Origin: Mobula hypostoma
Taxonomy: Eukaryota
Direction: 5' to 3'
Length of the DNA stretch: 64,000 nucleotides
NCBI RefSeq assembly: GCF_963921235.1
Contig: NC_086108.1
Coordinates: 68,822,001 to 68,886,000 of the forward strand
The position numbers and the translations under genes are program-made. How positions within the stretch are numbered: the stretch's first letter is position 1; each line of letters opens with the position of its first letter. Under the pieces are notes generated by a model. It was not told where the DNA came from. It saw only the letters and a program-made list of their open reading frames with translations, and searched no databases. This document shows, piece after piece, positions 1-54,310 of this stretch.

Positions 1-74
1 AGAAAAAAATATTTTGGGGATATATATTCTTGGAACGCCTGCAATGATTAACTGGATAACATTCTTGCCTTTGC

Positions 75-295
75 TTAAAGGTTGTTAGGTCGAGTGCCAC
101 TCCAGAGACTTAAATAAAAAAGTCTAGACAGATGATCCAGTGCAGTTCCACTATACTGTTCTATATACTACCTTTGATTACACATCTGCTTTCTTAGACA
201 AATATAAAAGATCTCATGGCACAACTTTGGAAAACGATGAGTGGAGTCTCCCCAGCGTCCTGCCCAATATTTATCCTTCAGATAATAGGACTAAG
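75..295 (+). mobile_element. Decayed Deu-domain SINE (SacSINE1/AmnSINE-like)
   Basis: ccactccagagactt head, plus aaaagatctcatggcac...ggagtctccccagcgtcctgcccaatatttatcc resembling the recalled Deu core. Confidence 0.6.
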
Positions 296-937
296 GGAAA
301 ACCTCAACGCTGTTTCTGGGTGTTTTTGACGTGTCAACTGCATTGTAGGAAACACTGCAGCCAATGGCTGCATTCAGAAGCATCTGAATAAGCAAGGTAG
401 AAAAAAAAACAAGATGATCATTTCCAGTGTGTATTTCAGAAAACCTCTTGTAAAGTATATTTACGTCAGTAGTTAGTCAAGACAGGATTGGATTATACCC
501 AACAATGTTGGGACTTCTGGTTGAATTAACATGTCAGAAGCCTCATATGAACAATATCATTTGGGAAAAACACTTAAACTTTTGATAATTGAAGAACTAC
601 ATTGTACCCTGAAAATAGAGATCATTTTTGAAAAGGTCATCAATTACAGTGGATAAAATAGCATAGTACATATATTAACTGTATTTAATATGGTTCTGTA
701 ACTGGATATGACAGCATTTTTCTCCATTGCAAACATTGCAAAATGTTAAAATACTGTACAACAGCATTAGTTATATTTTCCCTACATCTATATACAAATT
801 TTATAAATCTCTTTTTTATCATGTTGTCCATGGTGTGCCTCATAGATCATGTGGTTTAAGAGTGATACAATTCAATGATCCAAAAGCATCTTTTTATGCT
901 GAGCAGTTAAGAGGATAAGACCTTATTTTTTCTTCTT

Positions 938-1190
938 ATCATCATCATCATCATCATCAGGTGCCATGCCCAGTTTGAGCTTTGACTGCCATGGCCCACA
1001 CACTCCTGTTTCGGGTCAAGTGGATCAATTCATTGGTACCCCTTTCATTTCTAGTTCTCTGGCTGCTGTCTCCATCATCATTTGTCTTTGCCTTCCTCTT
1101 GCTTTCTTCCATTCAATCTTTCCCATAATTACCGTACATTCTAACTCCTCTTTCGTAATCACATGTCCAATGAAGTCACGTTGCTTTTTT
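938..1190 (-). mobile_element. RTE (BovB-like) LINE 3' end with (GAT)n tail
   Basis: Minus strand encodes FIGHVITKEELECTVIMGKI..KKARGRQR, followed by a (cat)n microsatellite tail on +. Confidence 0.75.
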
Positions 1191-1574
1191 TTTCGTATAC
1201 ACTGAAGTTTAATGCCTCATCGGAAATGTTCATTTGTTAAAAACCAAACTGATGAAGATCACAAGCCAAAACCCTTCTTTGTCTACTTGTCTACCACTGA
1301 CACTACTTTAGGCAACTGTGTACTTACCCTCCTTTGTACCTCTGTTCTTCAACACTCCCCAACACCCTACCATTCACTGTGAAAGTTCTACCCTGGTTTG
1401 ACTTCACAAAGTGCAACAGTTGATGCAGCCCCAATTTATCCACCTTAATAAGCCTTTAACACCACCAGTATCACTTTGTAAATAACCTCTCCTTATGGAC
1501 ATACAATCAGTGTATAAAAACTATCTTATGCATCGATATTTATTATGTTTAAATTTTTACTGTTTTTTTTATCT

Positions 1575-1945
1575 TACAGGAGTCAAACTGGACACACTGG
1601 AGGCCATGGTAGAATAAAAGACCCTATGGAAAATCCTGGCAATTCTGGACATTTCTCACCCCCTGCATGCCACCTTGGCTGAACAGAGGAGCACTTTTAG
1701 TAACAGACTAAGATAACTGCTCTGCTCCAAAGAGTGCTATATGAGGTCATTCTTACCCTTGGCCATTAGGCTCTATAATGAGTCAACCTATAGCTGGGGA
1801 AGTGATAACACCCTCCTTTTAGACTGTTTGAGGTAACTTAGTTTTTATTCTTTCTGACCTCTTCTAATATTTGGATATCTGTGCACTTGTAATGCTACTG
1901 TGATACTGTAATTTCCTTTGGGATCAATAAAGTACCTATCTATCT
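1575..1945 (+). mobile_element. Rex1/Babar-like LINE 3' end
   Basis: Decayed C-terminal SFLP-A-RLYN-type motif and gggatcaataaagtacctatctatct tail. Confidence 0.6.
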
Positions 1946-2439
1946 CATTGTGTTTTTTGTGCTGCATCGAAGTGGAGCAACAATTATTTTCTTCTTTACA
2001 CTTGTGTTTTGGAAATGATATTAAACAATCCTGAATCTTAAATCTTGTAGTGTTCCACTTCAGGGCCTCCAACACGGATGACCCAATACAGCAGCTCTCA
2101 TTGAAAATGATGGAAATCATCAAATATTCTCGTTTTAGCCTGCTACAGCTGAGAACCATAACTACGTCTATGACATGTACAGTCAGTGATGAAGTTTTAA
2201 TCCGATTGACCATTCTATCACTGCTTAAAACTGATGGAAATAAACCAGACTGTGGCTGGCATACTGCCCTTTAAGAAGCCATCAGCAAAAGAGGGGCTGA
2301 CTTGTTGGTCTGATGGTGTGTTTAAATCAATGAGGTTTTCGACTCCTAATACCAACAATCTTGCTGGCAAACATACAGGCTCTGGTAAAAAAAAAATTTG
2401 ACGATCCCAGAGCTAGGATGCTGTACCAGAGAGATATTA

Positions 2440-2924
2440 GCACCGCATGCGCCTTTTAATTTACGGACTCTTGGTTAATCTCTTCCGTTCCGGACACAGT
2501 GATTCAAACAGACGAGTTCACAAACATTGTCAAGATAGGTTGGTCGAATCTCAAAAGCAGAGGTGGAGGTATATGCCTCATGATCAACTCCTTGTGATGT
2601 ACTAGGTTTTGGGTGACATCCCAATTTTGTTCACCAGACTGGCCATTTTACCTGCTGCGGGAGATTTCAGCAATCATTTTGGTAACAGTGTACATTCCGC
2701 ATCAGGCCAATGTCAAACAGACTCTAGACAAATTGAGCAATGTAATGAACAGGCATGAAACAGCACATTCTGATGCCTTCCCCATCATTTTGGAGGTTAT
2801 TAACCAGGCCAGCTTGATAAAGTTACTACCTAATTATTATCAACAAATCACCTGTAGTACAAGAGCGAATAACAAAACGGACCACAGTTACTCTAAGATC
2901 AAGAGTGCCTATCATGCTATCCAC
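2440..2924 (+). mobile_element. Rex1/Babar-like LINE endonuclease fragment, interrupted by the ERV; its 3' tail resumes near 4789
   Basis: ORF 2613-2939 PFYLLREISAIILVTVYIPHQAN is APE-like; ttccccctctgccatc tail at 4789-4900. Confidence 0.7.
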
Positions 2925-4788
2925 TGTGGAAGAATTTAAGACTCTTTGGATATGTAGGGGTTACGCTTGAGCTGAGGCAAGATAGTGGGGAGTACGCTTG
3001 TGCGGAAGCAAGACAGCGGCTCTTACGCGATTCTAGGAAAAGAACCCTAGGTGGAAAAGGAGAAGCAAGACAGAAAGGTGCCTTCCAAGATGGAAAGGAA
3101 AATCAGTCTCCTAGCTGAAAGGGGGACGGCAGGGGGTGCTCGTGGGAGTACCAAGGTAACTACCGATCAATTCCGTGACTGAACTCAGAGACCTGTGGAA
3201 AGACAGAGGAAACACACCAGTGAGTGCTCATTGTGTGCGTAGTATGTATAAAGAAACTTGGTGCTGTCTTAACTGAAATTAAAATCCTAAACAGGAAAAA
3301 TGGGAAGTGCCAGCAGTTGATCGGCTAGCGCTCATCCTGCTAATAAACCGAAGGGTTCCAGAGGTAAAACGAAGGCTTTGAACACTGAACTGGAGGTAGG
3401 AAAAGACCGCCAAAAATAAAGATTAATAAGATAAAACGGCACCACCAGCAAATAGGAGACCCCTTAGTCCCACCTGGATCCCCGGCAGATATGGTAATCA
3501 GAGAGACCGGAGATGATCGTTATGCGGTAACATTCAGTACTGAGTGGTCACATTGGGATTGGCCGTATATGGGAAGTTTTAATTTGAGACTAATCTAGCA
3601 CTGGGAGGACACCACCCGAAATGGGGACAGCAACCCAAATTGGGATGCTGATTACATGTTAAGATGTTTTAAACGATGGAAGGATGTGGCTAAAAGACAC
3701 CAACCTCCAAAGAAAAAGGAGATTAAGCACCCTGAAACAGAGAAGGCTGGGCTGAAACAAAACCTGCCACGGGACTTTATCCCCAACTCCCCGTACCGGC
3801 CAGTACCCCATTGGCACCCAATAGTGAAATAGACGATTTAATAATGACGACGATTGCCTTGGGATGACCCGCTCCCACTCCTTACAATTCCCATACCAGA
3901 AGTTCAGGCACCTGACACCCCTGGGGAGAAGACATCACTGTAACGAGAGAAGGGTCTCAGGAAAGAGAAATTGAAGCCGAGGGAGCTGAAGGAAGTGTTA
4001 GCAGTACTAGCGATGACTAAAAAAAAAGAGGCAGGAAAAGAGAAAAAGAGAATGGAGGATAAGCTTTTAACAGACACCTTCATTATAACTAAAACAGCCC
4101 CGCTTCCCCTGCTGGGTCCGCAGACCCTTTGTAAATTAGGGGCAACACTGCACAGTACAGCTGAAGGTATATATATGGAGCTTTCTCAAATTACAGTCTC
4201 TCAAATGCTAAAATTAATGAATGGGTGAGAAAAGGACAGTTCAGAACCCATACTATACTGTTGGCAGCTAGATAGCAATCTCTATGCTTGGCAAGTTCAG
4301 AGGCTGTATGACACATTGATAAGACAAGCCAACCTCTACACGCAAAATCTGCAATACGATTAATAGCAGCCGAGAAAAGAAGCAGCTCCATTGCACGGTC
4401 TATTACACTTTACTAACTTACCTGCACTAAGATCAGGCTGTACACCCTTATTTAAACGGTAAAGCTGAAGGCAACACCGTATGTGTATTTTGGTCCCGAG
4501 GAATTAGAGCTCCTGGTAGACTTAGCGGAAGATCAGAAAAAAAGATTCTGACTGGGGTACTCCTCAATGCCTCATTTGACAGTGACCATAAAACCACCAA
4601 CGAAGCCTAAAAATATCAGGACGATGGTAAAACGATTGGCGAAAGAAACCAAGGCTGTTTATACTATAACTCTGCCGGTACTGGGACAGGAAGCCCGAAT
4701 AGAACGAAAAGGAGGGGAGAATTATGTTAAAGTCCGAGAGCTGGGAAACAACCTTTGAAAAGCAACAGCCACCACCAGAAGACCCCCT
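2925..4788 (+). mobile_element. Internally deleted class I (gamma/epsilon-like) ERV remnant: LTR-like 5' region, gag MA, protease C-terminus, 2H phosphoesterase domain
   Basis: Starts with TG at 2925 followed by ~30-bp tandem repeats. ATG at 3300 gives MGSASS (myristoylation motif). VPPGSPADMV...AVTFSTEWSHWDWPYMGSFNLRLI resembles MLV MA. APTPY is late-domain-like. FIITKTAPLPLLGPQTLCKLGATLH resembles the retropepsin LLGRDLL motif. HCT at 4389 and PHLT at 4570. Stops and frameshifts throughout. Confidence 0.75.
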
Positions 4789-4904
4789 GCTTCCCCCTCT
4801 GCCATCTGATTTCTAAATGGAAAATTAACGCAGGAACACTACCTCACTACTTCATTTCTTTTATTTTGCACTACTTATTTTAACTTAACTATTCAATAGA
4901 CATA

Positions 4905-6487
4905 CAGTTTCAAGAACAAGCTTGTGAACCATTACAATTACCTGGTTTTCTGCATTATTTACTCATAAAGTGTGGTCTGATCTTCATCTAAGTCACAATA
5001 ATAGACAAACACAATCTGCCTAAACTAATAACACATGAACAATTGTACCTCTTCTCGTCAATACTGCGTACACCATTTAAATAATCACAGTCTAGGTTCA
5101 AAAACTTATGTGAACCTCTGGGGTAATGCCCTCTACAAAAACTACTTGGAGTCAGGTGTTCCAATCAATGAGATGAGATTAGAGGTGTGGGTTGTAGAGG
5201 TGTCCTGCCCTATAAAAAAGACACCTGCAGTCAGGTTACTGACATAGCCTGCTCTTCTCAAGAAAAATCTGTTTATGTGCATCATACCTTGATCAAAACA
5301 ACTTTCAGAGGACCTTACAAGAACTGTAGAAATCCATAAAGCTGGAAAAGGGTACAAAAGTATTTCTAAAGACCCGAGTACTCGTCAGTCCACAGTAATA
5401 GAAATTGTCTACGAATGAAGGAAATTCAGTACTGTTGTACTCTTCCCAAGAGCTCAATGTGCAATGCTGAAGGAGGTGAAAAAGAACTCAAGGGTAACAG
5501 CAAAAGGCATGTAGAAAACTCCAGAACTTGCTAAAGTCTCTGTTCATCTGTCCACAGAAAAACACTGAACAAGGATGGTGTTCATGGAAGGACACCATGG
5601 AGGAAACCAATGCTCTCCAAACAAAACATTGCTGCACGTCCCAAGTTTACAAAAGACCACCTGGATGTTCCACAATGCTTCTGGGACAATGTTCTGTGGA
5701 CAAATGAGCCAGAAGTTGAACTTTCTGGCAGAAATGCATACCGCTATGTTTGGAGGAAAAATGGGCACTGCACACCAACATCAAAACCTCATCCCAACTG
5801 TGAAGCATGGTGGAAGGAGCATCATGGTTTGGGGCTGTTTTCCTGCCTCAGGGCTGGAACAGCTTGCAATCACTGAGGGAACAATGAATTCAAAATTGTA
5901 TCAAGACATTTTACAGGAGAACATCAAGGTAGCGGTCCGTCACCTGAAGCTTAACAGAAGTTGGATGATGCAACAAGACAATGATCCGAAACACAAGAGT
6001 AAATCAACAACAGAATGGTCTAAAAAGAAGGAAATCTGTGTTTTTGGAATGGCCAAGTCAGAGTCCAGACCTTCACCAAATTGAGATGCTGTGGCATGAC
6101 CTGAAGAGGGCTGTTTGATGTAAGATATCCCAGAAATATTGATGAACTGAAACAGTTTTGTATGGACGAATGGTTTAAACTTCCTCCTCACTGTAGTGCA
6201 AGTCTGATCAGCAGCTCCAGGAAATATTTGGTGGAGGTTATTGCTGCTAACGGAGGTTCTACCAGTTATTAAACACAAGGATTCATACACTTTTTCCAGC
6301 CTGGACTGTGAATAATTAAACAATGTATTCAATAAAGACATGAAACGTACAACTGTTTGAGTGTTATTAGTTTAGACAGGTTGAGTTAGTCTATGACTGT
6401 GACTTCCATGAAGATCAGAGCACATTTTATGAGTAATTAATGCAAAAAACAGGTAATTGCAAAGAGTTCACAAACTTCTTGCAACTG
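4905..6487 (+). mobile_element. Full-length degenerate Tc1 transposon
   Basis: TA flanks; ~150-bp inverted terminal repeats (cagtt...gtgaac / gttcac...aactg); transposase motifs VLWTNE, TVKHGGRSIMVWGCF, QQDNDPKHKSK, frameshifted. Confidence 0.92.
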
Positions 6488-6565
6488 TATATATATTTAA
6501 TGTAACTCATTTTTTCTCTGTATTAATTTATCATGTATTTCATTGTATTGCTGCCGTAAAGATAT

Positions 6566-7010
6566 TTAGATTAGATTAGATTCAACTTTATTGTCATTGT
6601 GCCGAGTACAGATACAAAGCTAATGAAATGCATTTAACATCTGACCAGAAATGCAAAGAATAGTGTTAGTTACAAAATAACTGCAAATAAAAAAAGTGCT
6701 ACAGCACACAAATATAAAAGAACTGAGACAGTACAATATGGATGCAATACTGCTTAGCGCTGTGATAAGAGGTTCAGCAGTGTCACAGCCTCAGGGAAGA
6801 AGCTCTTCCTGTGCCTGCTGGTGCGGGAGCGGAGGCTCCTGTAGTGCCTACCGGATGGGAGGAGAGTAAAAAGTCCATGGTTAGAGTGAGATGCATCCCT
6901 GATAATGCTTTTCGCTCTGCCCAGGCAGCGTTTATGGTAGATGTTCTCAATGGTGGGCAATTGAGTGCCGATAATCCGCTGGGCAGTTTTCACCACACGC
7001 TGGAATGCCG
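6566..7010 (-). mobile_element. Rex1/Babar LINE 3' fragment
   Basis: ORF 6754-7062 LQRVVKTAQRIIG-like...LLPSGRHYRS...SFFPEAV; (ttaga)n tail. Confidence 0.85.
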
Positions 7011-7259
7011 GTGATATTAAGCCTGATTCTGTATGTGATGTGTACATTTTTGAATACTTCATTCATTTTCTTAATTCCTTAGCACCATGACCTTCTCCAC
7101 AATAAATAAAGATGAGAGACAGTTTAAGACCTCATCGAACTCATCAGGTTCCACGTCTAGATGATTACATTAATCCTTAAGGGAAGCTGTTTGCTCTCTA
7201 GGTATCCTTTTACTCTTAATATACTTGTAGAATTGCTTAGGATCTGAATCTGCTCCAAT

Positions 7260-8580
7260 TTTCCCACCGTGACATGTAGATGCAATTTCATTGTTGCTTC
7301 ACTCAGCTGTGGAACACCTGGACAATAATGATGCACGTCAAGATGCTCTTCATTGACTACAGCTCAGCATTCAACACTGTAGCCCCATCAAAACTCATCA
7401 CTGAGCTCCAAGACCTAAGCCTCAGAGCCTTCCTGTGCAACTGGGTTCTTCATTTCTTTAATGACAGACCCTAATTAGTACGGACTGGTAACAATATCTC
7501 CTCCACACTCACCATCGGCACAGGCACAGCACAGTGTTGTGCTCTAGCCCCCTGCTGCACTCGCTTTATACTTATGATTGTTTGGCTAAGTGGAGATGCA
7601 ATCTCTATTTAAGTTTGCTGACACCACCATTGCTGTTGGCCAAATATGACAAATCACCATATAGGACGGAGATTGAAAATCTGGCTGAGTGGTGCCATAA
7701 GAACAACCTCTCACTCAAAGTCAGCATAACCAAAGAGCTGATTATCAACTACATGAGAAAGAAGCTGGTGGTCCATGAACCAATCCTCAGTCGGGAAATG
7801 GAGGTGGAGAGGGTCAGTAGTTTCAAAGTCCGTGGCATTAACCTATCAAAGGAATTGGCCTGGAAGGAGCAAATATTGTCATAACTGTGAACTAAGTCAC
7901 CAAAGAGACACTGAAGCTAGTGGCTATAGAAGTGTTTATTCAGCAAAACGAGCAGCAGGCATCATTTTCGAGATACTCTTGGAAGAAGAGGCCTGCCTGA
8001 CCCAATATTACATGACATTTTTATATGCTAAAGATCAAAGGTAACAGCAGGACAATCCTACAGTTACAATGTATCTACAATGCTTCCTTTGAATTACATA
8101 CAATTTTCAAACACTTCCATTTTCACACCCACACTCCAGACCCCCAAAATGGATATTAATTCCCACCAACCCTGGGCCACATTCATGCATATACATGCAT
8201 CAAAGATCAAATGGAGTGTTTCTTTGTTTGCAATCAACCTCAAAATGTAGCTCCAAGAAGACCATTGTTCAGAGCTGTATTTTGAATTCAATCTACTTGT
8301 ACAATCTACAGTCAGGTCTCAAGACCAGCTGCTGTTGAAATTAGTATTTGCCATATACCATAACTCCAGAATACACCCTAACAAGTATCATCAAAAAGAC
8401 ACAACAGTGTCTCTACATAGAAGTTTATGTAGATTCAGTATGTCATCAAAAACTTCAACAAACTTACATAGACACACAGTGAAGAGTATCCTAATTGGCT
8501 GCAGCACAGCCCAGTATGGCATGATATCGTCAGTGACCAACGCAACAAATGGCAACATCCTGCAGAGAGTTAACACAACA
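7260..8580 (+). mobile_element. Decayed Rex1/Babar RT region, split by a solo LTR
   Basis: MLFIDYSSAFNTV, WCHKNNLSLKVSITKELII, SILIGCSTAQYG. Confidence 0.8.
7877..8383 (-). mobile_element. Putative solo LTR (~507 bp)
   Basis: TGT...ACA termini; near-identical 5-bp flanks aatat/agtat; AATAAA on the minus strand near 7935; cleanly interrupts the Rex1 sequence. Confidence 0.65.
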
Positions 8581-9399
8581 ACTACTTCTTCTTTTTCTTG
8601 TAAACATACTCCTACTACTAATCTGTGTGCAATTAGAGACTGGAATTTACATCTCTGTAATGTGTTTCTGGGCCGACTAAGCGATCTGGTGCTTTTGCTG
8701 TCTCTGAGGGAATTCGGCGTGGTTGAGAGCAAGGTTGAGGATGGAGTGTGCCTAATGGTGGAGCACCAACCCATGATTGTTCCAATTCTCAACCAACTCG
8801 CTGATTAAAGCATTGAGCAAAATTGAAATCAATGTGGACGAAAGCAGAAGGTGAGTGGATGTTCAGCGCTGTCTGCCTGCGTTTGACAGGTCTCTCTTTC
8901 CCTCTTGCCCACTGCTGCCAAAGGAACATGCAGGAATCTTGGGTCTTGGGAAAGGTGTGATCAGCAGTTTGTAGATTGGACTCATTTTTAAGAGGACTTG
9001 GCAACTCATGTTATATTTGTTTCTGAATTCCGGATATTTAATTTTTATTGCTATTTTGTACAATTTTGATTGGGATGGACTGGCTCTCTGATCTGCAGAC
9101 AATGACTGACACAGAGCTAAATTGAACTGAACTAAAAACAAACAGTCCTAGACTGTTTCAAGGACTCTGCGGTTTGATGCTTAATACTCTGTATGTTATT
9201 TGCTTGTTTTTTTGCTGCTTATGCGATTTGTTTTTTTTTGCACTTTGGGTGCTTAATGTTTTCTTTGAATGGATTCCATGGTTTCTTGTTTTCATGGCTC
9301 CGTGGGAAGACAAATCTCAGGGTTGTACACTGCATACATACTTTGATAATAAATGTACTTTGAATTTTTCTGTGGAAACATCAATGCCAGGACCAGAAA

Positions 9400-9900
9400 A
9401 GACTAGAGAAATTAATGAATACAATATGGTCCATCACAGGCAAAGCCCACCCCAACGTACACTTATATGGCATAGTGCCACAAGAAAGCAGCATCTATCG
9501 AAGTCCTCCACCATCCAGGCCATGTACTTCTCACACTACCACTGGGCAGGAGGTACAGGAGCCTTAGGTCTCACACCACCAGGTTCAGGAACAGTTATTA
9601 CCCTACAATCATCAACCTCCTGAAGCGGTCGATAACTTTACTCACCACAACTCTGAACCGATTCTATGATCTACAGACTCACTTTCAAGGAGTATTTACA
9701 ACTCACATTCTGAGTATTATTTTCATTTCCAGTTTGTATTCATTTACATATTGGTTGCTCTTCATTCTTTATTTATGTATAATTCTTTTATGAGTTCTGT
9801 TGTATATGACTTTTCCTGTAAACGTCTGCAAGAAAATGAATCTTAAGGTAGTGTTTCATAACATATACATAACTTTGATAACAAATTTACTTTAAACTTT
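9400..9900 (+). mobile_element. Rex1/Babar-like 3' end and UTR
   Basis: aaagcagcatct...ccatccaggccat...gcaagaaaatgaatct...tttgataa tail, shared with other copies in the window. Confidence 0.7.
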
Positions 9901-10316
9901 ACCGTACTTGCCCAAGCAATCTCCTCTTTCTGAATCCTGGTCTCTGTTGTGTATTTACTATTTCAGTAATATCTGAGTAATATTGTAAATACATTGTTTG
10001 ATTAACCATTCTTTGTTGTTTACAAAATTCATTACGGGTTAGATGTAAATATAGGTGAATGCATACTTCCTTATGCCACTACGTCATAAATGTGCACCTC
10101 ACTAAAATAAAGAAACAACACACAGTACTGAGCAAAAGTCTTGTTGATACCCTAGATTTTTTTAATATAATTTTTGTTTTAGATGTTTATCTTTTGTCTT
10201 CTGCATTAGTGTTTCAGTAGAAAAGAGCAAACTTTAGATTTCCAAACATCTGTTTTCCAGAAAACTAAATGTTAGAGAAATTTTTGTATTTCATTAAAGA
10301 AAGTAACATATTAATA

Positions 10317-11140
10317 GCGCAAACACGAGGAAATCTGCACATGCTGGAATTTCAAGCAACACAAGTAAAGTTGCTGGTGAACACAGCAGGCCAGGCTGCA
10401 TCTCTAGGAAGAGGTACAGTCGACATTTCCGGCCAACACCCTTCATCAGGACTAACTGAAAGAAGAGATAGTAAGAGATTTGAAAGTGGGAGGGGGAGGG
10501 GAGATCCGAAATGATAAGAGAAGACAGGAGTGGGAGGGATGGAGCCAAGAGCTGGACAGTTGATTGGCAAAAGGGATGAGATCATGGGACAGGAGGTCCG
10601 GGGAGAAAGAAAAGGGGGGGGAAGCCCAAAGGATGGGCAAGGGGTATAGTGAGAGGGACAGAGGGAGAAAAAGGAGAGAGAGAAAAAGAGTGTGTGTATA
10701 TAAATAAATAATGGATGGGGTATGAGGGAGAGGTAGGGCATCAGCGGAAGTTTGAGAAGTCAATGTTCATGCCATCAGGTTGGAGGCTACCCAGACGGAA
10801 TATAAGGTGTTGTTCCTCCAACCTGAGAGTGGCTTCATCTTTACAGTAGAGGAGGCCGTGGATAGACATATCAGAATGGAAATGGGATGTGGAATTAAAA
10901 TGTGTGGTTACTGGGAGATCCTGCCCCAGACAGTCCTTCCAGGTGAGGCAACACTTCACCTGTGAGTCGGCTGGGGTGATATACTGCGTCTGGTGCTCCC
11001 GATTTGGCCTTCTATATATTGGCGAGACCCGATGCAGATTGGGAGATCGTTTTGCTGAACACCTATGCTCTGTCTGCCAGAGAAAGCAGGATCTCCCAGT
11101 GGCCACACATTTTAATTCCACGTCCCATTCCCATTCTGAT
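10317..11140. mobile_element. Penelope-like element with inverted segments (GIY-YIG endonuclease fragment)
   Basis: VIYCVWCSRFGLLYIGETRCRLGDRFAEHL on +; LEEQHLIFRLGSLQPDGMNIDF on -; ~57-bp inverted repeat 10868-10924 / 11086-11140. Confidence 0.88.
10417..10454 (-). ncRNA. Penelope-associated minimal type I hammerhead ribozyme motif (degenerate)
   Basis: Minus strand: UAGUC CUGAUGA A GGGUGUUGGCCG GAAA U GUC GACUG. Confidence 0.6.
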
Positions 11141-11577
11141 ACATGCTGGTCATCTAGACATGGTTAAAATGAAAGCGTTAGCTCCAAGTTTGTCTAGTGG
11201 CCTGAGAAAGATTGGCAGATTGAGCAGCTTGCCATGCATTGCTAAGCATGTCAACATATCCTGAAGAAGGCAAGAGCAGCGCCTCTTCTTCCCTGGGAAT
11301 GGCTTGCATTGCCCTGGTAGAATCAATTACTAGAGAAGAATGGTGCCCAGAGCTGTCAGACCCTGAAATTGTTTCGCAGCCACAGGTCTCATCTGCCACG
11401 CACAGTGACCCCCTTGGCAGGAAAGATGTTATCCCACAAGAGTAAGAAATCTTCCACAGTATTATGCCCTTAAAAGTTAGTATGCCGTGGATGCCTATAT
11501 AGTAGCTGCATTATATAAATATTAGGTGACTAGAGAGAAATACGTTACATATTCGAGTTGAGATGCATTCTGTATGG

Positions 11578-12755
11578 CAGGGGTCCCCAACCTTTTTTGC
11601 ACTGTGAACCGGTTTATTAATGACAATATTCTTGTGGACCGGCCGACCCGGGGGGAGGCGGTGCGGGTAGGGTTGCCAACGGACAAGAGTAGCAGCCAAA
11701 TATGTTGTGCTTACCCTGAGAAAGACTACCATGACCATGAAGCCTTGCGCGGGCACCTGTGTGCGCATGCGTGATTTGCCCATGCGTGTACGTGCCGATT
11801 TTTTTCTACAAATTGGTTTTGGCAATTCTGTTCGGGGGGGGGTGTTAATCACGACCAGAATATAGGTGATAAGTGGCTAACACATTCAATTTCATTTCTA
11901 AAAGGGTTTATCTAACGAATTTAATATTAAACACGCAGCGCATATTTTCCTCGCATGAATATAGTGTTAAGTCAATTATCAGGTGAGGACAGAGGAGCTT
12001 GAAGTAAGTGTTGAACGAACTTCCAGTACAAGTGGTAGAGGCAGGTTTGATATTATCATTTAAAGAAAAATTGGATAGCTATATGGACAGGAAAGGAATG
12101 GAAGGTTACGGGCTGAGTGCAGGTCGGTGGGACTAGGTGAGAGCAGCGTTCAGAACGGACTAGAAGGGCAGAGATGGCCTGTTTCCATGCTGTAATTGTT
12201 ATATGGTTATATGGTTATATAAGTCACTTATAAGTCAATAGCATCATAACATTTTAAGTAACGTTTGGATATTAAACACACAACACATATTTTCCCCGTA
12301 TGAACATATAAAATCATTGCAACACACCAATATCGCTGAATCGGTGGAAGCCCTGGGCTTGTTTTCCTGCAACAAGACGGTCCTATCGAGGGGTGATGGG
12401 AGACAGCGATACTCAAAGGGGGTTCCTTATGTCCAGTCTATTCCGCAATTTAGTTTTCGTTGCATTCATTGCAGAGATATGTTGGAAGTGGAAGCAACGT
12501 TTTCATTGCTTTCGCGGCTATCTCAGGATATTTAGCCTTGACTTTAATCCAGAATGCCGGCAGAGATGTTATGTCAAACATACTTTTCAGCATACATTTG
12601 CAAGCTCAAGGAGTTGGTCTCCTTCCCACGCTGACATGGATGACACACGGGTAATGACCTCACGTGTGTTCAAGCTCAACAGTGCGTGACAGGGAATGAG
12701 GAAAGGTGCAGCTGACTCATATTGCCAAATCATATCATTTCTTCGTGGCCCGGTA
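11578..12755 (+). mobile_element. Non-autonomous hAT (Charlie-like) element, 3'-truncated, carrying a CR1 tail fragment
   Basis: caggggtccccaacctttt TIR at 11578; CR1 3' sequence at about 11990-12210; ends at gtggcccggta. Confidence 0.7.
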
Positions 12756-16529: not shown

Positions 16530-17700
16530 TAATAGCTACTGCTCTGCATACCATTCTTACACATCTGGAGAAAAAGGATACTTCTATGAGAATGCTGTTC
16601 TTGGACTACAGTTCAGCATTCAACACCACAATTCCATCCAGGCTCGACAAGAAGCTCAGAGACCTCGGTCTTCACCCTGCCTTGTGCAGCTGGATCTTGG
16701 ACTTCCTAGCAGATCGCCGGCAGATGGTAAGAGCGAGCTCCCTCACCTTCACCCCTCTGACTCTCAATACAGGAGCCCCCAGGGCTGTGTACTAAGTCCC
16801 CTCCTTTACACCCTGTAAACCCCTGACTGTGTTGCCACCCACTGCTCTAATCTGCTAATTAAATTTGCCGATGACATTACATTGATTGGTCTAATTTCAA
16901 ACAGTAACAAGGTGGCCTACAGGGAAGAAGTCACTTCTCTGATACAGTGGCGTCAAGAAAACAACCTCTCCCTCAATGTCACAAAAACAAAGGAGCTGGT
17001 TGTGGATTACAGGAGGAATGGAGACGGGCTAACGCCTATTGACATCAATGGCTCTGGATTTGAGAGGGGGAAAAGCTTTAAGTTCCTCGGCATTCACATC
17101 ACCGATGATCTCATGTGGTCTGTACACACCAGCTGTGTGGTGAAAAAAGCACAACAGTGCCTCTTTCACCTTAGACGGTTGAAGAAGTTTGGTATGGGCC
17201 CCCAAATCCTAATAACTTTTTACAGGGGCACAATTGAGAGCATCCTGACTGGCTGCATCACTGCTTGGTATAGGAACTGTACCTCCCTTAATTGCAGGAT
17301 TCTGCAGAGAGTGGTGTGCACACCCTAGTGCATCTGTAGTTGTGAACTTCCCATGATTCAGGAAATTTGCAAAGAGAGGCGTGTGTAAAAAGGACCTGTA
17401 GGATCACTGGGGACCTGAGTCACCCCAACCTCAATCTATTCCAGCTGCTACCATCTGGGAAATGGTACCGTAGCATAAAAGCCAGGACCAAAAGACTCCA
17501 GGACAGCTTCTTCCACCAGGCCATCAGAATGATTAACTCAGGCTGATTTGAGTGTACTTCTATGTTATATTGACTGCTCTATTTATCATAAATCATTATA
17601 AATTACTATGATTGCACATTGCACATTTAGACTGAGACATAACGTAAAGATTTTTATTCATGTATATGAAGGATGTAAGAAAGAAAGTCAATTCAATTTT
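16530..17700 (+). mobile_element. 5'-truncated Rex1/Babar LINE inserted in an older CR1
   Basis: MLFLDYSSAFNT, KFADD, ESILTGCITAWY; (caatt)n-like tail. Confidence 0.9.
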
Positions 17701-18992: not shown

Positions 18993-20616
18993 CAGTGGCA
19001 TGCAAAACTTTGGGTACCCCGGTCAAAATTTCTGTTACTGTGAATAGCTAAGCAAGTAAAAGATGACCTGATTTCCAAAAGGCATAAAGTTAAAGAAGAC
19101 ACATTTCTTTAATATTTTAAGCAAGATTATTTTTTTAATTCCATCTTTTACAGTTTCAAAATTAACAAAAAAGGAAAAGGGCCCGAAGCAAAAGTTTGGG
19201 CACCCTGCATGGTCAGTACTTAGTAACATCCCCTTTGGCAAGTATCACAGCTTGTAAACTAAGAGTTGCCAGCTAAGAGTTTTTCAATTCTTGTTTGGGG
19301 GATTTTCACCCATTCTTCCTTGTAAAAGGCTTCTAGTTCTGTGAGATTCTTGGGCCACCTTGCATACACTGCTCTTTTCTCTTTTGAGGTCTATCCACAG
19401 ATTTTCGATGACGTTTAGGTCGGGGGACTGTGAGGGCCATGGCAAAACCTTCAGCTTGCGCCTCCTGAAGTAGTCCATTGTGGATTTTGAGGTGTGTTTA
19501 GGATCATTATCCTGTTGTAGAAGCCATCCTCTCTTCATCTTCAGCATTTTTACAGACGGTGTGATGTTTGCTTCCAGGATTTGCTGGTATTTAATTGAAT
19601 TCATTCTTCCTTCTACCAGTGAAATGTTCCCCGTGCCACTGGCTGCAACACAAGCCCAAAGCATGAACTATCTACCCCTGTGCTTAACAGTTGAAGAGGT
19701 GTTCTTTTCATGAAATTCTGCATCCTTTTTTCTCCAAACATACCTTTGCTCATTGCAGCCAAAAAGTTTGATTTTAACTTCATCAGTCCACAGGACTTGT
19801 TTCCAAAATGCATCAGGCTTGTTTAGATGTTCCTTTGCAAACTTCTGACGTTGAATTTTGTGGTGAGAATGCAGGCAAGGTTTTCTTCTGATGACTCTTC
19901 CATGAAGGTCATATTTGTGCAGGTGTCGCTGCACAGTAGAACAGTGTACCACCACTCCAGAGTCTGCTAAGTCTTCCTGAAGGTCTTTTGCAGTAACTGG
20001 GGTTTTGATTTGCCTTTCTAGCAATCCTACGAGCAATTCTCTCAGAAAGTTTTCTTGGTCTTCCAAACCTCAACTTGACCTCCACCGTTACTGTTAACTG
20101 CCATTTCTTAACTACATTATGAACTGAGGAAATGGCTACCTGAAAATGCTTTGCTATCTTATCGCCTTTTCCTGCTTTGTGGGAATCGTTTATTTTAATT
20201 TTCAGAGTGCTAGGCAGCTGCTTAGAAGAGCCCATGGCTACTGATTTTTGGGACAAGGTTTGAGGAGTCAGGGTATTTATAAAGCTTTGAAATTTGCAAT
20301 GCCTGGCCTTTCCTGACAATGACTGTGAACAAGCCATAGCCCTAACAAGCTAATTAAGGTCTGAGACCTTGGTAAAAGTTATCTGAGAGCTCAAATCTCT
20401 TGGGGTGCCCAAACTTTTGCATGGTGCTGCTTTCCTTTTTTTCCACTCTAAAATTGTACAAAACAAAAATAATACACTAATCTTGCTTAAAATGTTGAAA
20501 AGAATGTTTTATCTTTAACTTTATGACTTTTGGAGATCAGTTAATCTTCTACTCATTTAACGATTCACAGTGACAGAAATTTTGACCAGGGGTGCCCAAA
20601 CTTTTGCATACCACTG
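18993..20616 (-). mobile_element. Full-length degenerate Tc1 transposon (second family)
   Basis: TIRs cagtggcatgcaaaactttggg / cccaaacttttgcataccactg with ~200-bp inverted arms; MGSSKQL start at 20235; VLWTDE, QQDNDPKH, WPSQSPDLNVIENLW; frameshifted. Confidence 0.93.
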
Positions 20617-37705: not shown

Positions 37706-40700
37706 GTAAAGTGAAGTCAGAGCCAAAGTAAAAGCAAAAGAGAAAACATACAAGGAAGCCAGAGTTAGTGGGAAGATAGAGGATTGGGGAGATTTCAAAA
37801 ACTTGCAGAAGCAATCTAAGAAGGTCATTCGGAAGGAAAAGATGAATCATGAGAGCAAGCTGACAACTAATATCAAAGAAGATACTAAAAGCTGTTTCAA
37901 GTATATAAAGGGTAAAAAAGAGTCGAGGGTAGATATAGGACAAATACAAAATGACGCTGGAGATATTGTAATGGGAGATGCAGAGAGGGCAGAGGAACTG
38001 AATGCGTATTTTACATCAGACTTCACAGCAGAAGACGTCTACAGTATACCAGGTATTCAAGAGAGTTAGGGAAGTGAAGTTTCTGCAGTGAAAATTACGA
38101 CTGAAAAGGTCCTCAGGGAGCTTAATCGTCTGAGGGTGGATAAATCTCCTGGACCTGATGGAATGCACCCTAGGGTTCTGAAGGACAGAGCGCTGAGGCA
38201 TTAACAATGATTTTTGAAGAATCAATAGATTCTGGCATTGTACCAGATGACTGGAAAATTGCAAATGTTATTCTGCTATTTAAGAAGGGTGGGAGGCAGC
38301 AGAAAGGAAACTATAGACCTGTTAGCCTGGCATCAGTGATTGGGAAGTTGTTGGAATCGATTGTTAGGGATCAGATTAGGGTACCTGGAGGCACACGATA
38401 AGATCGGCCTAAGCCAGCATGGTTTCCTGAAAGGAAAATCCTGCCTGACAAACCTACTGCAATTCTTTGAGGAAATTACAAGCAGGGTAGACCAAGGAGA
38501 TGCAACAGACGTGGAGTACTTGGATTTTCAGAAGGCCTTTGACAAGGTGCCGCACATGACACTGCTTAGCAAGATAAGAGCCCATGGAATTACAGGGAAG
38601 TTACTAGCGTGAGTGGAGCATTGGTTGGTCAGCAGAAAACAGAGAGTGGGAATAAAGGGATGGCTGCAGGTTACCAGTGGAGTTCCACAGGGATCAGTGT
38701 TGGGACCACTGCTTTTTACAACGTACGTCAATGATTTGGACTACGGTATTAATGGATTTGTGGCTAAATTTGCCGATGATACAAAGATAGGTGGAGGAGC
38801 GGGTAGTGTTGAGGAAATAGAGAGCCTACAGAGAGACTTAGATAGTTTAGGGGAATGGGCAAAGAAGTGGCAAATGAAATACAATGTTGGAAAGTGAATG
38901 GTCATTCACTTTGGTGGAAGAAATAAATGGGCAGACTATTATTTAGATAGCAAGAGAATTCAAATAGCAGAGATGCAAAGGGACTTGGGAGTCCTTGTAC
39001 AAGATACACTAAAGGTTAACCTCCAGGTTGAGTCGGTGGTGAAGACGACAAATGCAATGTTGGCATTCATTTCTAGAGGTATAGAATATAAGAGCAGGTA
39101 TGTAATGTTGAGGCTCTATAAGGCACTTGTGAGACCACACTTGGAGTATTGTGTGCAGTTTTGGGCTCCTTATTTTAGAAAGGATATATTGACATTGGAG
39201 AGGGTTCAGAGAAGATTCATGAGAACGATTCCAGGAATGAAAGGGTTACTGTATGAGGAATGTCTGGCAGCTCCTGGGCTGTATTCAGGAGAATGAGGGG
39301 GGGATCTCAAAGAAACATTCCAAACGTTAAAAGGCCTGAACAGATTAGATATGGCAAAGTTATTTCCCATGGTAGGGGATTCAAGGACAAGGGGGCACAA
39401 CTTCAGGATTGAAGGACATCCTTTTAGAACTGAGATGCGGAGAAATTACTTTAGTCAGAGGGTGGTAAATCTGTGGAATTTGTTGCCACAAGTGGCTGTG
39501 GAGGCCAAGTCATTAGGTGTATTTAAGGTAGAGATAGATAGGTTCAAAGATTCAAGATTCAAAAAACTTTATTGTCATTCTAACCGTACATCAGCTCCGC
39601 AGGGCAGAATGAGACAGCGTTTCTCAGGAGCAGTGCAATCATAACATAACAAACGCAACACTAAATAATAAACATAACAATAAATAGTAAAACACAACAG
39701 CCACATGTCAGTTAAAATGAGTTATAAGTGTCCAGTGCAAGTTAAAAGTGTCCAAAGCAGAGTCAGGTAGAGCAGCTATTTAGCAGTCTGACTGCCTGTG
39801 GGAGGAAGCTGTTTAGTAGCCTTGTGATTTTAGATCTGATGCTGCTGTAACGTTTGCCTGATGGCAGAAGAACAAACAGTTCATGGAGAGGGTATGAGGG
39901 GTCTTTAGTGATGTACCGTGTCTTCTGGAGGCATCGACTCTGAAAGAGGTCTTGGACAGAAGGTAGGGAGACTCCAATAACCTTCTCTGCTCCCCTAACC
40001 ACCCTCTGCAAGGCTTTTTTGTCGACAGCACTGCAGCTGGAGTACCAGGTTGTGATGCAAAAGGTCAGCACACTCTCAACCATGCCTCTGTAGAATGTAG
40101 TTAAGATGTTAGTGGGGAGTGATGCTTCTTTAAGCATCCTCAGAAAGTGCAATCTCTGCTGGGCCCGTATCACAATCCCAGTGGTGTTCCTGGACCAGGT
40201 GATATTGTCCGAGATCTGCACCCTAAGAAACTTGATGTTTTCCACTCTCTCCACTGTGGAGCCACTGATGCTGAGGGGTGTGTGCTCAGGCTGAGACCGT
40301 CTGAAATCGACGATCATCTCCTTGGTTCTGGTGACATTAAGCATCAAGTTGTTATTCCTGCACCAGCTCTCTAGGTGTTTGACCTCCTCCCTGTACATTG
40401 TTTCATCATTTTTGCTGATGAGCCCCACCACTGTGGTATCATCTGCAAATTTAATGATCAGGTTCTCCTTGAATCTGGCTGCACAGTCATGTGTTAGCAG
40501 TGTAAACAGCAATGGGCTAAGCACACAGCCTTGTGGGGATCCAGTGCTCAGTGTGATGGAGTCAGAGATGTTCCTGCCAACACGGACTGACTGTGGTCTA
40601 TCTGTCAAGAAATCCAGAATCCAGCAACACATGGCAGTGCTGAGGCCAAGCAGCGACAGATTAGCCAGGGCATCAAAGGGTATGAGGTGAAAGCAGGGGA

Positions 40701-40803
40701 GTGGGAATGACTGGAAGAAGAGGATCAGCCCATGATTGAATGCTGGAGCAGACTCGATGGGTTGAATGGCCTACTTCTGCCCCTATATCTTATGGTCTTA
40801 TGA
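37706..40803 (+). mobile_element. 5'-truncated CR1 LINE (RT pseudogene)
   Basis: GNYRPVSLAS, QHGFLKGKSCLTNL, YLDFQKAFDKVPH, SGVPQGSVLGP, KFADDTK; 3' tail tcttatggtcttatg. Confidence 0.93.
39545..40660 (-). mobile_element. Relatively young 5'-truncated Rex1/Babar LINE inserted in the CR1 3' end
   Basis: Uninterrupted 289-aa ORF 39763-40632 ([34 protein letters not shown]); (ttgaatc)n tail. Confidence 0.93.
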
Positions 40804-43619: not shown

Positions 43620-45082
43620 ACTAGTTCCTGAGGATTGGAGGGTGGCTAATGTAACTCCACTTTTTAAAAAAGGAGGGAGAGAGAAACCAGGGAATTATTA
43701 GCCTAACGTCGGTGGTGGGGAAACTGCTGGAGTCAGTTATCAAGGATGTGATAACAGCACATTTGGAAAGCGGTGAAATATCGGACAAAGTCAGCATGGA
43801 TTTGTGAAAGGAAAATCATGTCTGACGAATCTCATAGAATTTTTTGAGGATGTAACTAGTAGAGTGGATAGGGGAGAACCAGTGGATGTGGTATATTTGG
43901 ATTTTCAAAAGGCTTTTGACAAGGTCCCACACAGGAGATTAGTGTGCAAACTTAAAGCACACGGTATTGGGGGTAAGGTATTGGTGTGGGTGGAGAATTG
44001 GTTAGCAGACAGGAAGCAAAGAGTGGGAATAAACGGGACCTTTTCAGAATGGCAGGTGGTGACTAGTGGGGTACCGCAAGGCTCAGTGCTGAGACCCCAG
44101 TTGTTTACAATATATATTAATGACTTGGATGAGGGAATTAAATGCAGCATCTCCAAGTTTGCGGATGACACGAAGCTGGGTGGCAGTGTTAGCTGTGAGG
44201 AGGATGCTAAGAGGATGCAGGGTGACTTGGATAGGTTGGGTGAGTGGGCAAATTCATGGCAGATGCAATTTAATGTGGATAAATGTGAAGTTATCCACTT
44301 TGGTGGCAAAAATAGGAAAACAGATTATTATCTGAATGGTGGCCGATTAGGAAAAGGGGAGGTGCAACGAGACCTGGATGTCATTATACACCAGTCATTG
44401 AAAGTGGGCATGCAGGTACAGCAGGCGGTGAAAAAGGCGAATGGTATGCTGGCATTTATAGCGAGAGGATTCGAGTACAGGAGCAAGGAGGTACTACTGC
44501 AGTTGTACAAGGCCTTGGTGAGACCACACCTGGAGTATTGTGTGCAGTTTTGGTCCCCTAATCTGAGGAAAGACATCCTTGCCATACAGGGAGTACAAAG
44601 AAGGTTCACCAGATTGATTCCTGGGATGGCAGGACTTTCATACGAAGAAAGACTGGATGAACTGGGCTTGTACTCGTTGGAATTTAGAAGATTGAGGGGG
44701 GATCTGATTGAAACGTATAAAATCCTAAAGGGATTGGACAGGCTAGATGCAGGAAGATTGTTCCCGATGTTGGGGAAGGCCAGAACGAGGGGCCACAGTT
44801 TGAGGATAGAGGGGAAGCCTTTTAGGACCGAGATTAGGAAAAACTTCTTCACACAGAGAGTGGTGAATCTGTGGAATTCTCTGCCACAGGAAACAGTTGA
44901 GGCCAGTTCATTGGCTATATTTAAAAGGGAGTTAGATATGGCCCTTGTGGCTACGGGGGTCAGGGGGTATGGAGAGAAGGCTGGGGCGGGGTTCTGAGTT
45001 GGATGATCAGCCATGATCATAATAAATGGCGGTGCAGGCTCGAAGGGCCGAATGGCCTACTCCTGCACCTATTTTCTATGTA
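43620..45082 (+). mobile_element. Young 5'-truncated CR1 LINE with an open RT/C-terminal frame
   Basis: 397-aa ORF 43804-44997 with CR1 RT motifs; 3' UTR ggccgaatggcctactcctgcacctattttctatg. Confidence 0.95.
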
Positions 45083-51644: not shown

Positions 51645-54310
51645 CTCATGTGCCTTGTGCGTTACTTGCTAGGGCGATCATGGCTTTCCACATCGAATGA
51701 TCCCATGCAGCGTCAATGATATCTTGCACACTTAGTTCTGTTAGTTCTTTCACAGTGTCCATATATTTTCTTCTTTGCCTTCCTCTTCTGCGTTTCCCAG
51801 GCATACGGCCTTGTAATGTAAGGCATTCTATTTCTCCCTTTCTGACGACATGGCCGAAGAATTTAAGTTTCCTCTCGTTTAATGTTCTCATGAAAGATCT
51901 TTTTGTGTGGGCACGTTGGAGTACTGTCTCATTAGTTACCCTATCTCTATATGATATTTTCAATATTCTTCTAAGAAACCACATTTCTGTTGCTTCTAAG
52001 TTTCTTTGGAGTTCTGGTGTTATAGTCCATGTTTCGGAAGCATACAGCAAGATTGACCAGATGCAACATTTTAGTACTGTAAGCCTTGTTGTCATAGAAA
52101 TGTGTCTGTTGGTAAAAATGGGTTTCATTTTTTGGAAGTTGGCTTTGGCAATGGCAATTCTTCTTTTTATATCTACTTTACTTCTAGCATCTTGTGATAT
52201 AAAGCTACCAAGGTAATTAAAGCGGGTCTTTTATTCAATCTCTTGGTTACCAACGTACAATTGTCAGTTGGGAGTATCCTGCTGTTTTGATATTACCATA
52301 CATTTGGCTTTTTACAGTTGATGGTTAGACCAAAATCAGCACGTGTTTGTACTACTTTGTCTAGGAGGATTTGTAGGTCTTCTGCAGCACTTGCTATTAG
52401 GGTGGTATCACCTGCATATCTTATATTGTTGATGTTAACACCTCCAATTTTTATTCCACCTAGGTCTTCTATTTCTCTGAGAATCATTTCACTATAGATA
52501 TTAAAAAATTCCAGTGATGCATCGCAACCCTGTCTAACTCCTCTTGGAATTTCGGTCAATTTTTACCGCCGCCATTTGGTTCCAATATAAATTTTGAAGC
52601 AGTTGTTGGTCCCTTCCGTCAATGTTTAGTTTAGCGAGAATTTGAAATAATTTTTCATGTTGCATTTTGTCGAATGCTTTAGTGAAATCAATAAAACATA
52701 AAAAGGCATCATTTTAATATTCAATTGCCCTTTTTGAAAGCATTCGTGGTATGACAACTGCGTTCCTAGTTCCTCTATAAACCCATATTGCAGTTTAGAC
52801 ATTTCTGGCCTTAACTTGTTTTTAATGCGACTCAGAACAATTCTCAACAAAATCTTTATTATGTAACTCATAAAACTGATTGTTCTATAATTTTTGCAGT
52901 CAATAGTTGCAGGAATTTTTGAAAGTTATAAATACTGATTTCAAGAGATCGTCAGGCAATACACCAGGACTCATTCATGCCATTGAACAGTTCAAAAAAG
53001 AATATCTATGCCCAGATCTTCTTGGGCTTGAATCATTTATACTGAAATTTCATCAGGTCCAGTGGCTTTACCATGTTTCATGCTTTTCACTGCTTTAGTT
53101 ATTTCTTCTTTGGTAATAGGTGGGCCAGAATTAGGGTGTTTAATATCTGGGGGGTTCCCCTCTATTATCTTCAAAAAGCTGCTCTATATACTGAATCCAC
53201 CTCTCACATACTTCATCTGGATTTGTTAGTATGGATCCATCTGCTGATCTTATGCATCCTGTAGAGGAGGTTTTCTCAATTCCAGTAATTTCCTTAATTT
53301 TCTTGTGTATTTCTTGGCTGTTGTTAATATGGCCTTCTACTTCATTGCATTTTTGATTCAGCCATTCTTCCTTTGCAATATTGCACAATTTTCTGGTCTG
53401 TCTGTCTAGCTCTCTGTATTGCACTTCATTATTCTTCACTAACCTTCTTTGTTCCATCAGATCTAGAATTTCTTGGGTTATCCACCCCTTGTTGGTGTGT
53501 TGTATTTCTTGTACTGGGATTATCTCCTCTGCTGATTGCCGTAAAGAATATTTAAATCTGTCCAAATAGGCGTTGTTAAGTTTTCGTTGAGGGGTTCTTC
53601 TACAGCTGTTTTGAATTGTTGCTTAAGTATGCTAACCTTTTAAGTTCTCCCAACATATACTTCTTTCTCTTTTTTTAGGCCTGTCAGAAATTAGATGGAC
53701 CGACAGTGGCAAATTCAATAAGAATAGTTCTCTGATAATGTATTCTGGAGGTCAACAGCATGTGTATGGAGTTGGAATTATTTTAAACAAACAAGTATCA
53801 AAATGTCTTATGGGATATTGGGCGATATCTGACCGGCTGCTTTTAGTTAAATTAAGGGGTAACTCTTTTAATATTAGCATAATCCAAGCCTATGCGCCAA
53901 CAAATGATGCCGATGAAGAGGATATCAACAAGTTTTATGAAGATCTCGACGGTGCTTATGAGCAATGTAAATCTCAGGATATAAAACTAGTCATGGGAGA
54001 TTTTAACTCCAAAGTTGGACAGGAAAGGGCTGATAACATCATAGGACCTTTTGGATTAGGGGAGAAAAATGAAAATGTAGAAAGGTTTACTGATTGGTGT
54101 GTCAGAAACAACCAAGTGATCACCAATACTTGGTATAAAAATCCTCCACGTAGATTGTGTACTTGGATTAGCCCTGGAGATAGAACAAGGAATCAAATAG
54201 ATTTCATTTGCATCAATGAACGCTTTAGAAATAATATCACAAATTCTAAAGTCTATTCAGGAGCAGACTGTGGTTCAGATCACCATACAGTAAAAGCTAC
54301 CATTAAAACC
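51645..54310 (-). mobile_element. RTE (BovB-like) LINE with 5' inversion: RT part on minus (51645-53680), endonuclease on plus (53678-54310)
   Basis: GVRQG, INNIRYAGDTTLIA, LYASETWT, LKFFGHV on minus; GLSEIRW, IIQAYAPT, MGDFNSKVG, NQIDFI, SDH on plus; 9-bp TSD agtgtaatt at 51636-51644 and 54311-54319. Confidence 0.92.

Follow-up and report, generated by a model that had tools for sequence, protein, structure and literature searches.

A broken, predicted CNPase-like 2H phosphoesterase domain behind the protease of an endogenous retrovirus remnant in Mobula hypostoma

Endogenous retroviruses (ERVs) carrying a 2H phosphoesterase domain are already on record in fish. In ray-finned fish, some epsilon-like ERVs are described as encoding a CNPase (PMC4977317, citing Basta 2009), and CNPase frames in fish ERVs as well as a 2H domain in WDSV are in print (cited in the accessible parts of PMC4977317 and PMC9503650). 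Thus, the original prediction for the locus studied here was right in invoking fish retroviruses with such domains in pol, and two of the relatives presented below show the order of the domains. In the literature covered, consisting of main texts and few subscription papers, we found neither a functional study of a retroviral CNPase domain nor a report of one from cartilaginous fish. The available portions of Han 2015 and Xu 2018 do not mention a retroviral CNPase domain. As for CNPase itself, its own biological substrate is called unknown in the accessible text of two studies (PMC3290555, PMC5283653).

The locus analyzed here belongs to a cartilaginous fish. The window, i.e., the whole 64,000-nucleotide stretch of Mobula hypostoma DNA that was analyzed (NCBI RefSeq assembly GCF_963921235.1, contig NC_086108.1, positions 68,822,001 to 68,886,000 of the forward strand), contains ERV-like sequence from about 2950 to 4795. 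All features given below are on the + strand unless stated otherwise. This stretch is best explained as what is left of a dead ERV of class I (epsilon-like), the ancestral pol of which would best be read in the order protease, CNPase-like 2H domain, RT, RNase H, and integrase.

The original prediction had recognized an ERV remnant with a 2H phosphoesterase encoded immediately behind its protease. Direct translation finds each of the elements that it quoted: a protease-like LLGPQTLCKLGATLH in frame 2 upstream of the motifs, HCT at 4389-4397 in frame 3 within KQLHCTVYY and, after a shift of frame, HLT at 4573-4581 in frame 1 within SSMPHLTV. The quoted stretch YVYFGPEELELL...F*LGYSSMPHLTV...RTMVKRL is also present, its stop being located at 4549-4551. 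In the window copy, HCT and HLT are spaced by 184 nt (61.3 codons), and the stop-free frame 4552-4755 carries the second motif alone, not the first. Taken by itself, the HCT/HLT pair proves little because such pairs are common by chance. The six frames of the window hold 103 H-hydrophobic-[TS]-hydrophobic motifs, and 10 same-strand motif pairs 165-240 nt apart occur in the window, the HCT/HLT pair among them.

Unlike the motif pair alone, the homology exceeds chance, as judged from sequence comparison. A query covering 4456-4755, with the stop written as X, was compared by phmmer with 1.84 billion representative proteins and gave two hits. The first one is an uncharacterised protein of the sawshark Pristiophorus japonicus (P0003), with an RT domain (RVT_1) at 375-541. 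The second one (P0004) is a repeat protein matching residues 65-94 of the query only, and it was rejected as spurious. In a tblastn comparison with the window, P0003 aligns in four collinear pieces (4073-4357, 4332-4406, 4465-4647, and 4715-4795), in frames 2, 3, 1, and 2, respectively, with 40-46% identity and a combined E of 2e-31. This alignment sets both HxT motifs motif on motif, and the stretch from protease through 2H domain to RT is unbroken in P0003. On its own, the domain reaches 59.3 bits (E 1e-15) vs. 26.2 bits for the best of 200 shuffles, these values carrying some circularity since P0003 was itself retrieved using a window piece. The original observation of the motifs, and of 2H homology behind a protease, is confirmed as real.

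Profile searches point the same way. With a profile made from the three intact domains (P0003, L001, and L002; see below), ranks 1-4 out of 3382 window segments go to the four pieces of the domain (E 1e-6, 3e-5, 0.11, and 0.62). With a profile from L001 and L002 alone, piece 4552-4755 ranks first of the 3382 window segments (E 0.0027), the other three pieces all being worse than E 5. Outside this small set, window pieces had no relevant match in Pfam, in PDB sequences, in phage genomes, or in word-based searches of a 5.8-billion library. A word-based search of the same library with P0003 95-290 returned only P0003 itself, scans of viral contigs gave no match for the domain, and the L002 domain had phage hits only, all with E of at least 6.

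L001 and L002 are the two confirmed cases among 117 candidate metagenome-contig stretches from a P0003-based search. Both are retroviral gag-pol loci with a DSG-protease, a 2H domain having both motifs, an RT, and an RNase H. In both, DSG-protease, 2H domain, and RT share one frame. Hence, the accessory enzyme of the original prediction is part of the Pol polyprotein and not the product of a gene of its own, the relatives encoding it in one frame with protease and RT. In L002, positions 1430-5548 form an open pol frame of 1373 codons with protease, 2H, RT, RNase H, and integrase, where Pfam marks nothing over the 2H part; the integrase, in the same pol frame, matches MLVIN_C with E 8e-15. The L002 metagenome contig is probably animal DNA in the sample. 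In L001, gag-pol extends over 3626-9034 with two frameshifts, the first in gag and the second ahead of RNase H. A single in-frame stop parts gag from pol in L001, which is not so in L002 as assembled; in the window copy, this gag/pol boundary lies in the deleted part.

Among RT structures, those of the XMRV/MLV type are nearest to the RTs of the relatives, with E 1e-95 to 1e-97, and foamy Pol is behind (1e-39 to 1e-41). By these similarities, the MLV-like RT, the RNase H, and the integrase C-terminus found in L002 mark the lineage as a class I retrovirus. Between the three intact relatives, the 2H domain is 28-50% identical vs. 65-79% for the RT, with both HxT motifs kept; including the window copy, both HxT motifs are invariant in 4/4 sequences. 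The nearest relative of the window copy is the sawshark protein P0003 (41-46%), vs. 30-36% for L001 and L002. A chondrichthyan ERV lineage, as first proposed, is therefore plausible in that the nearest named relative is a sawshark, but the domain is not the speciality of one shark lineage, the distant L001 and L002 having it too. Taken with the published cases, the sequences suggest that a CNPase within Pol is shared by retroviruses of bony and of cartilaginous fish, the named sawshark protein being a case of the latter. Because of this distribution, the capture of the CNPase may be old or may have crossed hosts.

The fold assignment draws on one Atlas model, that of the relative P0003 (whole-protein pTM 0.45, pLDDT 0.66), and on one weak profile hit. 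In the Atlas structure search with P0003 100-285, row 1 is vertebrate CNPase, with a TM of 0.72 over 168 residues that passes the naming bar, the match lying in P0003 106-275. Rows for tRNA-ligase CPD come next (TM 0.48-0.58), and LigT/AKAP7 clusters reach TM 0.43-0.44 over 114-116 residues. The named structure rows for P0003 are 2H families throughout. The Atlas feature search favors phage/fungal tRNA-ligase CPD and 2H-SAK clusters (0.92-0.94), not CNPase. A PDB profile search gave six hits at E<=10, 4/6 being CNPase/RICH; the best one, goldfish RICH, is weak (E 0.028), and its alignment covers LHCT...F and the strands after it. Two AlphaFold models of the domain, with mean pLDDT of 36.9 and 36.5, gave no usable fold. 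The 2H fold expected by the original prediction is thus recovered in the Atlas model of the relative P0003, while Foldseek on the second, low-confidence AlphaFold model returned nothing at E<=0.001.

Pfam and NCBIfam gave no 2H or CNPase match for the window pieces or for the domains of the relatives, and the gathering score of PF05881 was reached neither by the window pieces nor by the P0003, L001, and L002 domains. Being invisible to Pfam, the domain is left blank in ERV annotations. Altogether, we regard a 2H domain of the CNPase type within Pol as very likely. By prediction, and in the one comparison available, it belongs with CNPase/RICH, outside the AKAP7-derived NS2/VP3 class.

In the window, the putative 2H domain extends over 4229-4757, broken into frames 2, 3, and 1, and is collinear with P0003 104-241; the profile and the P0003 fold agree with this placement. 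Its first strand contains LYCW (4253-4264), found in 4/4 sequences and, in the register that we infer, the probable counterpart of CNPase Leu167-Tyr168. The role of Tyr168 is described in PMC4643303. The first catalytic motif, HCTV (4389-4400), has an aromatic residue at +5, as in CNPase His230-Thr232 and Phe235. The second one, HLTV (4573-4584), has a proline at +11, as in CNPase His309-Thr311 and Pro320 (residue numbering from the accessible parts of PMC4643303 and PMC3290555). Across the window copy and the three relatives, the aromatic residue at His1+5, the proline at His2+11, and the LY strand are present in 4/4 and the glycine at His2+15 in 2/4. Counterparts of CNPase Arg307 and Val321 occur in 0/4, and the motif spacing is 59-62 in the retroviral domains vs. 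79 in CNPase. A helix after the second motif, at the position of alpha7, is present in one of the two low-confidence AlphaFold models. Because Arg307 and Val321 are unmatched and the spacing is shorter, substrate specificity may differ from that of CNPase.

The window copy is certainly unable to make a 2H enzyme: it has several stops and three frameshifts, about 1.7 kb of gag-pro is gone, and RT is absent. In and just before the 2H domain, breaks beyond those first described are a stop at 4226-4228, stops with a second frameshift at about 4428-4455, and a third frameshift near 4715-4757. The original prediction had rightly called the copy inactive, but it had missed these further breaks and a large deletion near 4050. 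The stop at 4226-4228, between protease and 2H domain, is private to the window copy. P0003, L001, and L002 are open there and most related contigs read another letter, which rules out a programmed read-through site.

The remainder of the ERV is also decayed. The probable 5' leader has imperfect tandem repeats of 31 nt at 2961-3053 (TRF 2.2 copies, 72%; a third unit is weaker). The leader of ZFERV, from zebrafish, has repeat arrays, too. Related contigs step back by 62 nt at 3025->2964, so the copy number of the leader repeat varies. A broken, matrix-like gag start follows at 3300-3829, with stops and frameshifts, where segment 3527-3697 is 32% identical to the Gag N-terminus of L001 over 60 aa (E 3e-4); it begins with Met-Gly, presumably a myristoylation signal. 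At 3868-4017, direct translation gives a post-matrix Gag spacer, proline-rich then acidic, for which no homologue was matched; its PTPY motif is, we assume, late-domain-like. An internal deletion, with its junction at 4050-4057, has taken away capsid, nucleocapsid, and the N-terminal, catalytic half of the protease. The distance from the gag start to the C-half of the protease is 773 nt in the window vs. 2453 nt in L001, i.e., about 1.7 kb missing, and capsid/nucleocapsid queries had no match in the window. The C-terminal half of the aspartic protease, without D[ST]G, occupies 4052-4225 (36% to L002 Pol 87-154, E 5e-9; 41% to P0003), Pfam RVP covering 25-120 of L002 Pol. Finally, a proline-rich linker toward RT at 4715-4795 (46% to P0003 268-295) ends the ERV.

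The ERV is cut off by a very high-copy repeat with a T-rich end at 4794-4904 (no strand assigned), and loose contig ends lie at 4794. Over 4794-4904, the summed depth is 15,000-49,000 vs. 140-920 over the ERV in three DNA-type runs; the repeat is presumably a LINE 3' end. Queries with L001 and L002 Pol gave no retroviral RT, RNase H, or integrase hit below E 0.3 in the window. RT frames downstream in the window were considered as the RT of the ERV and ruled out, since they have LINE-type domains and no retroviral Pol match. Fragments of LINE-type RT/endonuclease lie at 16819-17325, 39766-40770, 43777-44994, and 53636-54367, and "ALKBH8_N" Pfam hits at the C-terminal end of the RT presumably reflect a LINE-derived model. 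No LTR pair or long direct repeat was found in 1-12000, no convincing primer binding site was seen, and ARAGORN found no tRNA. Outside the ERV, 4915-6480 is a decayed DNA transposon with 134-nt inverted repeats (79%) and a transposase-like translation that we assign to the Tc1 family. A second fragment, of Sleeping Beauty-type HTH, is at 19912-20349 on the minus strand. Positions 10800-11141 have inverted arms of 56 nt (93%) and read, in our opinion, as a Penelope-type GIY-YIG endonuclease.

Sequencing runs show that the family is not confined to this copy. Part of the stretch is contained in 20/24 listed runs (12 studies, 10 coded organisms), none of which reaches half its words and none of which is listed as RNA. 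Four runs were aligned to the window, X1, X3, and X9 being DNA-type and X10 guessed to be RNA. Contigs fill 30/30 bins in X1, X3, and X9, most of them at less than 95% identity, and related contigs at 80-99% identity occur in 4/4 aligned runs. The ERV family is multicopy in related genomes. At 4226-4228, another reading than the stop accounts for 381/390 of the depth in X1, 236/254 in X3, and 170/327 in X9; because most of the depth reads otherwise, this stop is damage to the window copy. None of the 40 paralogue differences listed falls inside the HxT motifs, 344 further differences standing outside that list. Over about 4340-4461, a part that includes motif 1, several X1, X3, and X9 contigs jump ahead or stay unaligned, through either deletion or divergence, and others span both motifs. 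One X10 contig is identical to 4472-4692; the data type of X10 being guessed, this has no bearing on expression.

The deletion junction was followed in the same contigs. Among 32 listed of more than 23,000 pieces, four contigs leave the window at the junction with 346-623 other letters, and three, of which X1, X3, and X9 contribute one each, clearly span it with about 80-87% identity. Both longer forms and a common deleted form seem to exist, bearing in mind that repeat contigs can be mosaics. A deleted, non-autonomous gag-pro subfamily may have spread in three organisms. That such an element fused matrix to 2H and was selected for a functional, membrane-bound CNPase-like product strikes us as hardly credible.

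What the domain would do in an intact virus can be proposed from its position and fold. An ancestor of these fish retroviruses would have captured the catalytic domain of a host CNPase/RICH. Made within Gag-Pol, the domain would be packaged at RT-like amounts (compare the single in-frame gag/pol stop in L001) and would act in the virion or in the reverse-transcription complex. Its two His/Thr motifs would be used as in CNPase, 2',3'-cyclic phosphates being opened to 2'-phosphate/3'-OH. The likeliest use would be to heal RNA ends left by metal-independent RNases, on the primer tRNA or on a nicked genome; alternatively, the domain could clear cyclic nucleotides and cyclic-ended RNA. On balance, our analysis leans toward cyclic-phosphate opening as the job of the domain in the virus. 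The narrower proposal of a virion-packaged RNA-end-healing partner of RT is tentative, and we would sooner expect it to fail than to hold. To our knowledge, no retroviral enzyme heals RNA ends. Rat CNPase is reported to be able to stand in for yeast Trl1 in RNA healing (PMC3290555). If the proposal is true, RNA-end healing beside RT would point to an RNA substrate occurring in nature for the CNPases, an enigmatic family.

The same chemistry could serve another purpose. An enzyme without a role in reverse transcription might remove 2',3'-cyclic nucleotides or cyclic-ended RNA that alert innate sensors, RNAs with such ends being reported to stimulate RIG-I/MDA5, NLRP3, and TLR8 (PMC8406329). CNPase chemistry suffices for this task, consistent with the fold, and the purpose alone differs from that of the best explanation. 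However, a location beside RT in Pol would rather suggest action inside the particle, and we consider removal of immune signals unlikely.

RNA-end processing and immune evasion through 2-5A were both offered by the original prediction; the former is the stronger option and the latter the weaker one, as the fold is of the CNPase/RICH type and not AKAP7-derived. A 2',5'-phosphodiesterase destroying 2-5A, and thereby blocking RNase L as coronavirus NS2 and rotavirus VP3 do, appears improbable to us. Pol domains are made in small amounts, which suits a cytosolic scavenger poorly. It is true that the superfamily and the catalytic motifs are the same as in NS2/VP3 (PMC8406329), that an OAS protein exists in elephant shark (PMC6307210), and that specificity may have shifted, since the residues near the active site are unlike those of CNPase. 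However, the known viral 2-5A enzymes are traced to AKAP7-like ancestors (bioRxiv 2023.05.12.540623) and the present domain fits CNPase far better. In CNPase, helix alpha7 is reported to obstruct the 2',5' substrate side (PMC5283653), and, of the Pro/Gly register into this helix, the proline is kept here in 4/4 sequences and the glycine in 2/4. The domain is also found in teleost ERVs (PMC4977317), while some teleosts are described as being without OAS genes (PMC2852836).

Equally improbable in our estimation is a domain that counters host CNP, or steers Gag-Pol through CNP-like binding of matrix or RNA, catalysis being secondary. Host CNP is reported to bind HIV-1 matrix and to inhibit particle formation at the plasma membrane (PMC7471995), and the captured domain does sit in a polyprotein that assembles with Gag. 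However, catalytic motifs that stay invariant in 4/4 sequences at 28-50% domain identity point to catalysis, and nothing here indicates retroviral restriction by fish CNP. Weakest of all, and very improbable, is a passenger or spacer without selected function, or a window motif pair due to chance: most retroviruses are without a 2H domain, chance motif pairs are common, and the domain diverges faster than RT, but the homology is collinear with E 2e-31 and the motifs are kept in three ERVs whose RTs differ by 21-35%. It is unlikely that the domain of the lineage has no function, and it is certain that the window copy has none at present.

Taken alone, this locus has little weight, being a dead fragment, and the lineage matters modestly. 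RNase L antagonism would be more striking if true, but it is less likely than the opening of cyclic phosphates. The natural intact copies beside RT, those of P0003 and L002, offer a simple in vitro handle on the question of the CNPase substrate.

Compared with known systems, the predicted lineage comes closest to the epsilon-like fish retroviruses with a CNPase/2H domain, with which it shares class I membership, a fish host, and a CNPase-like 2H domain, the protease-2H-RT order being read in L001 and L002. The window copy differs from them by its cartilaginous-fish host and by its state, as it is broken, carries a deletion, and ends short of RT. With vertebrate CNPase and fish RICH (PF05881; PDB 1woj, 2yq9, and 2i3e), the likeness consists of the predicted fold of P0003, LHCT with an aromatic residue at +5, and the proline at +11. 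In contrast, the retroviral domain is without the N-terminal kinase-like domain, without Arg307/Val321, and below Pfam detection. The CPD of fungal/phage tRNA ligases (PF08302, PF22547), which heals 2',3'-cyclic ends of RNA, is best by features and next-best by structure. However, its structural overlap is shorter than that of CNPase, and the retroviral domain is without an adjoining ligase or kinase. Finally, MHV NS2, MERS NS4b, rotavirus VP3-CTD, and AKAP7 belong to the same 2H superfamily with two His-hydrophobic-Thr/Ser motifs, and the viral ones are likewise virus-borne, but these viral enzymes are AKAP7-derived, are produced either on their own or within a capping enzyme, and are a much poorer structural match (TM 0.43-0.44).
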